DNA of 64,000 nucleotides from the NCBI RefSeq assembly GCF_050920415.1, contig NZ_CP169309.1; one strand, written 5' to 3'. Below, piece after piece: positions 53,105 through 55,659 of this stretch (positions are counted from its first letter, which is position 1; the number at the start of each line of letters is the position of its first letter). The DNA comes from Escherichia coli (lineage in GTDB: Bacteria; Pseudomonadota; Gammaproteobacteria; Enterobacterales; Enterobacteriaceae). A program made the position numbers and the translations under genes. The notes beneath the pieces were generated by a model. That model made no database searches. It saw only the letters and a program-made list of their open reading frames with translations, and was not told the DNA's origin.

Positions 53105-54088
53105 GTGTTAAAAAAATATCTTCCCCTGCTGTTGCTCTGTACAGCACCCGCTTTCGCTAAACCCGTTCTGACTGTTTATACCTACGACTCCTTCGCCGCC
53201 GACTGGGGGCCAGGTCCGGTGGTGAAAAAAGCCTTTGAAGCCGACTGTAATTGCGAACTGAAACTGGTGGCGCTGGAAGATGGCGTTTCGCTTCTCAACC
53301 GTCTGCGGATGGAAGGCAAAAACAGTAAAGCCGATGTGGTGCTGGGGCTGGATAACAATCTGTTAGATGCCGCCAGCAAAACCGGGCTGTTTGCTAAAAG
53401 CGGTGTGGCAGCGGATGCCGTTAACGTTCCCGGCGGCTGGAATAATGACACTTTCGTCCCGTTTGATTACGGCTATTTCGCCTTCGTCTATGACAAGAAC
53501 AAACTGAAAAATCCGCCGCAAAGCCTGAAAGAATTGGTTGAAAGCGATCAAAACTGGCGGGTGATTTATCAGGATCCGCGCACCAGCACGCCGGGGCTGG
53601 GTCTGCTGTTGTGGATGCAAAAAGTCTATGGCGATGACGCCCCACAAGCCTGGCAGAAACTGGCGAAGAAAACGGTCACGGTCACCAAAGGCTGGAGCGA
53701 AGCCTACGGCCTGTTTTTAAAAGGCGAAAGCGATCTGGTACTGAGTTACACCACTTCTCCGGCTTATCACATTCTCGAAGAGAAGAAAGATAACTACGCC
53801 GCCGCGAACTTCAGCGAAGGTCACTATTTGCAAGTGGAAGTCGCCGCCCGCACCGCTGCCAGTAAACAGCCGGAGCTGGCGCAAAAATTCCTCCAGTTTA
53901 TGGTTTCTCCGGCTTTTCAGAATGCGATCCCAACCGGCAACTGGATGTATCCGGTGGCAAACGTCACGCTGCCTGCCGGTTTTGAAAAATTGACCAAACC
54001 GGCAACCACGCTGGAGTTCACGCCAGCCGAGGTGGCGGCACAACGTCAGGCATGGATTAGCGAATGGCAACGCGCCGTCAGCCGTTAA
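53105..54088 (+). CDS. thiB: Thiamine ABC transporter periplasmic binding protein
   Basis: ORF 53093..54088; GTG at 53105 chosen (VLKKYLPLLLLCTAPAFA signal peptide, 327 aa), which gives the 984-nt length recalled for K-12. Confidence 0.9.
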   Translation: MLKKYLPLLLLCTAPAFAKPVLTVYTYDSFAADWGPGPVVKKAFEADCNCELKLVALEDGVSLLNRLRMEGKNSKADVVLGLDNNLLDAASKTGLFAKSGVAADAVNVPGGWNNDTFVPFDYGYFAFVYDKNKLKNPPQSLKELVESDQNWRVIYQDPRTSTPGLGLLLWMQKVYGDDAPQAWQKLAKKTVTVTKGWSEAYGLFLKGESDLVLSYTTSPAYHILEEKKDNYAAANFSEGHYLQVEVAARTAASKQPELAQKFLQFMVSPAFQNAIPTGNWMYPVANVTLPAGFEKLTKPATTLEFTPAEVAAQRQAWISEWQRAVSR

Positions 54089-55659
54089 TTCCAGGCGTAA
54101 GCGCCGCTACGCTTGTGGTGGCGGTTGCACTGGCGGCATTTCTCGCCCTGTGGTGGAACGCGCCGCAGGGTGACTGGATGGCAATCTGGCAGGACAGCTA
54201 CCTGTGGCATGTGGTGCGCTTCTCCTTCTGGCAGGCGTTTCTCTCGGCGCTGCTCTCTGTCGTACCCGCGATATTCCTCGCCCGCGCGCTCTATCGCAGG
54301 CGCTTTCCGGGTCGGCTGGCGCTGTTGCGTCTGTGCGCAATGACCTTGATCCTCCCGGTGCTGGTTGCTGTTTTCGGCATTCTTAGCGTCTATGGTCGCC
54401 AGGGCTGGCTGGCATCACTCTGCCAATCGCTCGGTCTGGAGTGGACCTTTTCGCCCTACGGCCTGCAAGGTATTTTGCTGGCGCACGTATTTTTTAATCT
54501 GCCGATGGCGAGCCGCTTATTACTCCAGGCACTGGAAAACATTCCCGGCGAACAACGTCAGCTTGCCGCCCAGCTTGGGATGCGCGGCTGGCATTTTTTC
54601 CGCTTCGTCGAATGGCCGTGGTTACGGCGTCAAATCCCGCCGGTTGCCGCGCTTATCTTTATGCTCTGTTTCGCCAGCTTCGCCACCGTGCTATCGCTGG
54701 GCGGCGGTCCGCAGGCGACCACTATCGAGCTGGCAATCTATCAGGCGTTGAGTTACGACTACGATCCCGCCCGCGCGGCGATGCTGGCGCTGATCCAGAT
54801 GATATGTTGCCTTGGGCTGGTGCTGTTGAGTCAGCGACTAAGTAAAGCCATTGCGCCCGGCACCACGCTGCTGCAAGGCTGGCACGACCCGGACGACCGT
54901 CTGCATAGCCGCATTTGCGACACGGTGTTAATTGTGCTGGCGCTGCTGCTGTTGCTGCCACCGTTACTGGCGGTGATTGTCGATGGGGTAAATCGCCAGT
55001 TGCCAGAGGTGCTGGCACAACCGGTGCTGTGGCAGGCGCTGTGGACCTCGTTGCGTATTGCGCTGGCGGCAGGCGTATTGTGCGTGGTGCTGACCATGAT
55101 GCTGCTATGGAGCAGTCGCGAATTGCGGGCACGGCAAAAAATGCTGGCGGGCCAGGCGCTGGAGATGAGCGGAATGCTGATCCTCGCCATGCCGGGGATT
55201 GTGCTGGCAACGGGCTTCTTTTTACTGCTCAACAACACCATCGGCCTGCCACAATCTGCTGACGGCATCGTGATTTTCACCAATGCGTTAATGGCCATCC
55301 CTTATGCGCTGAAAGTGCTGGAAAACCCGATGCGCGATATCACTGCCCGCTACAGCATGCTATGTCAGTCGCTGGGCATTGAAGGCTGGTCACGCTTAAA
55401 AGTGGTGGAGCTGCGCGCCCTGAAACGTCCGCTGGCGCAGGCGCTGGCCTTTGCGTGTGTGCTGTCGATTGGTGATTTTGGCGTGGTGGCGTTGTTCGGT
55501 AACGATGATTTCCGTACCCTGCCGTTTTATCTCTACCAGCAAATTGGCTCCTATCGTAGCCAGGACGGCGCGGTGACCGCGTTAATTCTACTGCTGCTCT
55601 GTTTTCTGCTGTTTACCGTGATTGAAAAACTACCGGGGCGAAATGTTAAAACTGACTGA
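54064..55659 (+). CDS. thiP: Thiamine ABC transporter permease
   Basis: 531 aa polytopic ORF ([26 protein letters not shown]..); overlaps thiB end by 25 nt and thiQ start by 17 nt. Confidence 0.93.

Follow-up and report, generated by a model that had tools for sequence, protein, structure and literature searches.

Is the thiP gene of this Escherichia coli strain truly shorter than that of its relatives, and if so, by what event and with what effect on the transporter? The question arises within a stretch of 64,000 nucleotides (referred to as the window), for which the first-pass annotation had given ThiP as 531 aa and, against 536 aa for the K-12 protein, had tentatively proposed a 15-bp in-frame indel. 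It placed the indel between positions 54064 and 54110, possibly within short direct repeats around PLIPGVSA close to the N-terminus, and suggested a protein alignment with K-12 ThiP as a check. Altogether, the evidence makes it very probable that the locus carries a recent, clonally inherited in-frame deletion of 15 bp, probably produced by slippage and near-neutral.

The thiBPQ operon of the window

The short thiP allele lies in a complete operon, thiB-thiP-thiQ, behind a TPP riboswitch (Table 1). The gene order is that of the annotated relatives, in which a riboswitch upstream of thiB is also annotated. The thiB and thiP genes overlap by 25 nt, and the last 17 nt of thiP lie within thiQ. ThiB and ThiQ both exceeded the cut-offs of their equivalog models, ThiB with 646.6 bits for TIGR01276 and ThiQ with 449 bits for NF008039 (cut-off 298).

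The 531-aa ThiP exceeded the cut-offs of both NCBIfam equivalog models: NF006953 with 1173 bits (cut-off 970), residues 1-531 being aligned to profile positions 1-536, and TIGR01253 with 978 bits (cut-off 395). It contains two tandem BPD_transp_1 stretches (Pfam PF00528), the best of which covers residues 69-261; K-12 ThiP gave the same result with an offset of 5 residues. With remoter ThiP models the match does not begin before residues 4-10, which places the extreme N-terminus outside the family core.

A mini-ORF of three codons (ATG GAT TAG, 54054-54062) was seen inside thiB, in the reading frame of thiP. It stops 2 nt upstream of the thiP ATG, is found in both alleles and is probably a coincidence.

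Table 1 Features of the thiBPQ locus in the window
Feature	Position	Strand	Basis
TPP riboswitch, operon regulatory leader, upstream of thiB	52975..53074	+	Rfam RF00059, 66.1 bits (gathering score 54.3), E = 2.3e-12
thiB, periplasmic thiamine-binding protein, 327 aa	53105..54088	+	Annotation of relatives by coordinate offset; TIGR01276
thiP short allele, thiamine/TPP ABC transporter permease	54064..55659	+	ORF, 531 codons and stop
Retained 15-bp repeat unit GTTAATTCCAGGCGT	54084..54098	+	DNA alignment with MFDS1022581 and K-12
thiQ, ATP-binding subunit, 232 aa	55643..56341	+	NCBIfam NF008039; annotation of relatives

A 15-bp gap in a short direct repeat

Two reference sequences were fetched for comparison, MFDS1022581 as the best match and AML001_ev02 as a K-12 derivative. 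In both, thiP is annotated with 1611 nt (536 aa and stop), so the length given for K-12 was right. DNA alignment of the window gene with MFDS1022581 and K-12 gave one 15-bp gap and no further length change; the flanks of the gap are identical and the ATG start is shared between the alleles. In the protein alignment with K-12 ThiP (WP_000235721.1, 98% identity) the lengths differ by five residues, and the segment missing from the window protein is LIPGW, residues 8-12 of the 536-aa form. The proposed in-frame indel is thus borne out.

The suspected repeat is also present, with two units in the longer allele and one in the window. The longer allele, which we regard below as ancestral, reads GTCAGCC GTTAATTCCCGGCTG GTTAATTCCAGGCGT AAGC, and the window reads GTCAGCC GTTAATTCCAGGCGT AAGC. 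In MFDS1022581 and K-12 the two units, encoding LIPGW (GTTAATTCCCGGCTG) and LIPGV (GTTAATTCCAGGCGT), follow each other with a period of 15 bp, match at 12 of 15 positions and each open with the perfect 9-bp block GTTAATTCC. The BLAST trace placed the 15-base gap at 54084; because the perfect block occurs in both units, the endpoint of the deletion is ambiguous within 54084-54092, a range that falls inside the interval originally indicated. The junction reads CGTCAGCCGTTAATTCCAGGCGTAAGC in the short allele and GTTAATTCCCGGCTGGTTAATTCC in the allele with both units. This repeat was taken directly from the alignment; Tandem Repeats Finder, run on K-12, did not report the two-unit repeat, which is too short for its score threshold.

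Direct repeats therefore flank the deleted segment in the longer allele, the length of the deletion equals the repeat period (15 bp), exactly one copy is kept and the endpoint falls in perfect homology; the last three are the hallmarks of short-direct-repeat deletion. On the most likely course of events, an ancestral thiP with the adjacent repeats, common to other E. coli and Enterobacteriaceae, would have lost one unit by slipped-strand mispairing in replication; an equivalent RecA-independent deletion through the short homology would be an alternative route. Either would yield a ThiP without LIPGW, leaving the overlapping thiB stop and all permease domains intact. We infer replication slippage solely from the structure of the repeat.

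Distribution of the short allele

A 601-base query across the thiB/thiP junction found a match in 5398 of 5426 complete E. coli genomes, and in every row listed the span of the record was 15 bases longer than that of the query. With a 111-base query centred on the junction, 802 records had a coverage of at least 80%: 801 were gapped alignments of 80-90% identity and the remaining one was a two-piece match, again with a record span 15 bases longer than the query. None of the 802 matched the junction query end to end without a gap. By these two queries, the short allele was present in none of the 5398 complete genomes.

The exact 531-aa protein is nevertheless public (WP_325856676.1, EOT3436686.1, MEB6430876.1 and XVM71894.1). 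It is encoded on six public contigs, which include the NCBI draft GCA_035787075.1, one contig of 5.3 Mb and Logan assemblies of ERR10854090 and of another sample. Two of the six were fetched: one (L003) has a single SNP (61266) relative to the window in 19,937 bp, and the other (L004) is free of differences over 12,315 bp. Over 25 kb, only 1 SNP (58435) and the 15-bp deletion separate the window from the closest complete genome, MFDS1022581, so the event is very recent. As the same protein stands on six contigs, and the two fetched ones are near-identical to the window, the allele is real and clonal; the searches place it within a small clone.

The two positions named above are the only SNPs between the window and its nearest relatives. 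That at 61266 lies inside araA (G in the window, A in GCA_035787075.1), and that at 58435 in the araC-araB intergenic regulatory region (C in the window, T in MFDS1022581).

The surroundings of the operon show that the strain comes from a divergent and uncommon lineage of E. coli. Identity of the window to K-12 is 95.1-96.2% over about 31 kb aligned (29298-64000). For positions 39001-64000, the complete E. coli genomes listed as top matches mostly reach no more than 98%; about 16 of the genomes listed are near 98%, and only two are at 99% or above (MFDS1022581 with 99.9% and N96 with 99.0%). The window also lacks setA, the sugar efflux transporter gene located between sgrT and leuD in K-12: about 40 bp (50953-50992) stand in place of about 1.26 kb of K-12 sequence, and leuD is followed directly by sgrT. 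MFDS1022581 and L003 share this arrangement.

Reality and direction of the event

That the length difference might merely reflect annotation or the choice of start codon has nothing in its favour except that such differences are common in general, and it is refuted by the shared ATG and upstream sequence and by the DNA itself, which is 15 bp shorter. A sequencing or assembly artefact, in which the short tandem repeat had collapsed in one assembly, is extremely improbable. Assemblers can collapse short tandem repeats, and the allele was seen in no complete RefSeq genome; against this, the identical protein occurs on six contigs of different sources, and a 15-bp unit is far below any read length, which makes a collapse implausible.

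The direction of the change can be read from other genera. A protein search brought up ThiP of Salmonella, Citrobacter, Enterobacter, Klebsiella, Kosakonia, Raoultella, Yokenella, Buttiauxella, Cedecea and others, in almost every case with a length of 536 aa. Most outgroup N-termini carry the doubled motif PLIPGWLIPG or a near variant, its last part being (I/V/L)PG; the versions in Klebsiella and Raoultella are more diverged, with unchanged length. Because the outgroup genera thus combine 536 aa with this motif or close variants of it, and the nearest relative of the window has 536 aa as well, we regard the longer protein as ancestral and the window allele as a derived deletion. The reverse polarity, in which a 531-aa ancestor gained 15 bp by tandem duplication and so reached 536 aa, could appeal to the resemblance of the two units, matching at 12 of 15 positions, to a tandem duplication. 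The doubled motif is, however, found in Salmonella, Citrobacter, Enterobacter, Kosakonia, Buttiauxella, Cedecea and others, so any duplication would long predate E. coli, and the full-length relative is only 1 SNP away over 25 kb. On these comparisons the chance of a reversed polarity is vanishingly small, and we consider that reading effectively refuted.

Consequences for ThiB and ThiP

The stop codon of thiB (TAA, 54086-54088) sits within the repeat and is intact after the deletion. As GTTAA is equally present in the retained unit, the end of ThiB is unchanged, and frame translation gave the C-terminus EWQRAVSR for both alleles. Ancestral thiB has two in-frame TAA codons, one per unit and 5 codons apart (R, stop, FPAG, stop; positions 2787-2804 of L001, the MFDS1022581 sequence). 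The back-up stop is gone in the window, where the next in-frame TAA after that of thiB is at 54098-54100, with three codons (FQA) between them.

The window ThiP has kept its ATG, reading frame, N-terminal Arg-Arg pair and one LIPG, and the hydropathy profile still shows the hydrophobic part of helix 1. The lost LIPGW belonged to the short N-terminal segment before the first predicted transmembrane helix, and the deletion site is upstream of both permease domains, the first BPD_transp_1 match starting at residue 69. Within this segment, G11 and W12 are nearly invariant (at least 90% conserved in an alignment of 30 enterobacterial ThiP sequences). In the thiP mRNA the deletion corresponds to +21 to +35, and the predicted local fold is -42.3 vs -49.2 kcal/mol between the alleles, for segments that differ in length. 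AlphaFold2 models based on the 30-sequence alignment had a mean pLDDT of 50.4 (536 aa) and 46.6 (531 aa), too low to interpret; in these low-confidence models the first helix begins near residue 9-10 in both alleles. A PDB sequence search gave no close homologue over the ThiP N-terminus, only distant permeases of the ModB/CysT type, from residue 23 onwards.

The 531-aa protein most likely still functions as the ThiBPQ permease, and the effect of the deletion is likely to be neutral or mildly deleterious, with no or only a slight phenotype. The segment of residues 8-12 may nevertheless be under purifying selection, and the deletion not fully neutral, because G11 and W12 are near-invariant and the allele is absent from 5398 genomes that have the same repeat. 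A stronger reading would make the allele a hypomorph, in which loss of Trp12 and the shortened segment before helix 1 compromise or change the insertion or activity of ThiP, the defect being tolerated through de novo thiamine synthesis, or positively selected. The conservation of G11 and W12 across enterobacterial genera would fit this, as would the absence of the deletion from all 5398 genomes despite a repeat substrate common to all, and so would the position in the early mRNA with a predicted local fold that differs between alleles. We consider it unlikely all the same, given that helix 1 keeps its hydrophobic core, that the Arg-Arg pair and a full LIPG copy are still present, that the equivalog scores lie well over their cut-offs, that the remoter models leave the N-terminal tail out of the family core and that the allele persists in several isolates. 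Still less likely, with a probability that we put as very low, is that the LIPGW-LIPGV repeat, which overlaps the thiB stop codon, is a recurrent slippage site whose contraction would measurably alter membrane insertion of ThiP or thiB-thiP translational coupling and whose thiamine-uptake phenotype would be selected.

The recent, near-neutral slippage deletion that we favour is of very small significance in itself: it is a rare allele, at strain level, of a transporter gene that is well characterised. A literature search on thiP and thiBPQ found no paper on the 15-bp indel. The 531-aa allele is an ordinary rare strain-level variant, already deposited as a RefSeq protein, and its consequence is probably minor. 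Its practical use would be as a clonal marker for the small lineage near MFDS1022581. It also offers a clean natural case of a short-direct-repeat deletion that leaves the stop codon of an overlapping upstream gene intact. Should the conserved segment with Trp12 matter, the allele would be a ready-made natural mutant for the study of the ThiP N-terminus.

Comparison with known systems

The closest well-known counterpart is the ThiBPQ thiamine/TPP ABC importer of K-12, where, as in the window, a TPP riboswitch is followed by thiB, thiP and thiQ, with yabI downstream. K-12 thiP shares its start codon with the window gene and overlaps thiB and thiQ to the same extent. Apart from the five missing residues, the window protein differs from this permease by 11 substitutions, which are typical of the divergent lineage of the window. 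The nearest full-length allele, ThiP of MFDS1022581 (WP_000235658.1, 536 aa), is 100% identical over all 531 shared residues, and its gene differs from that of the window by the extra 15 bp GTTAATTCCCGGCTG.

For E. coli, the classical deletions between short direct repeats, among them those at the lacI hot spots, are attributed to replication slippage or to RecA-independent short-homology deletion. The thiP deletion resembles these classical cases in its length, which equals the period, in the single copy kept and in an endpoint that is ambiguous within 9 bp of homology. Unlike the classical selected laboratory mutations, it is seen in nature, as a polymorphism that has become fixed in one small clone, and its mechanism is deduced only from the sequence left behind.
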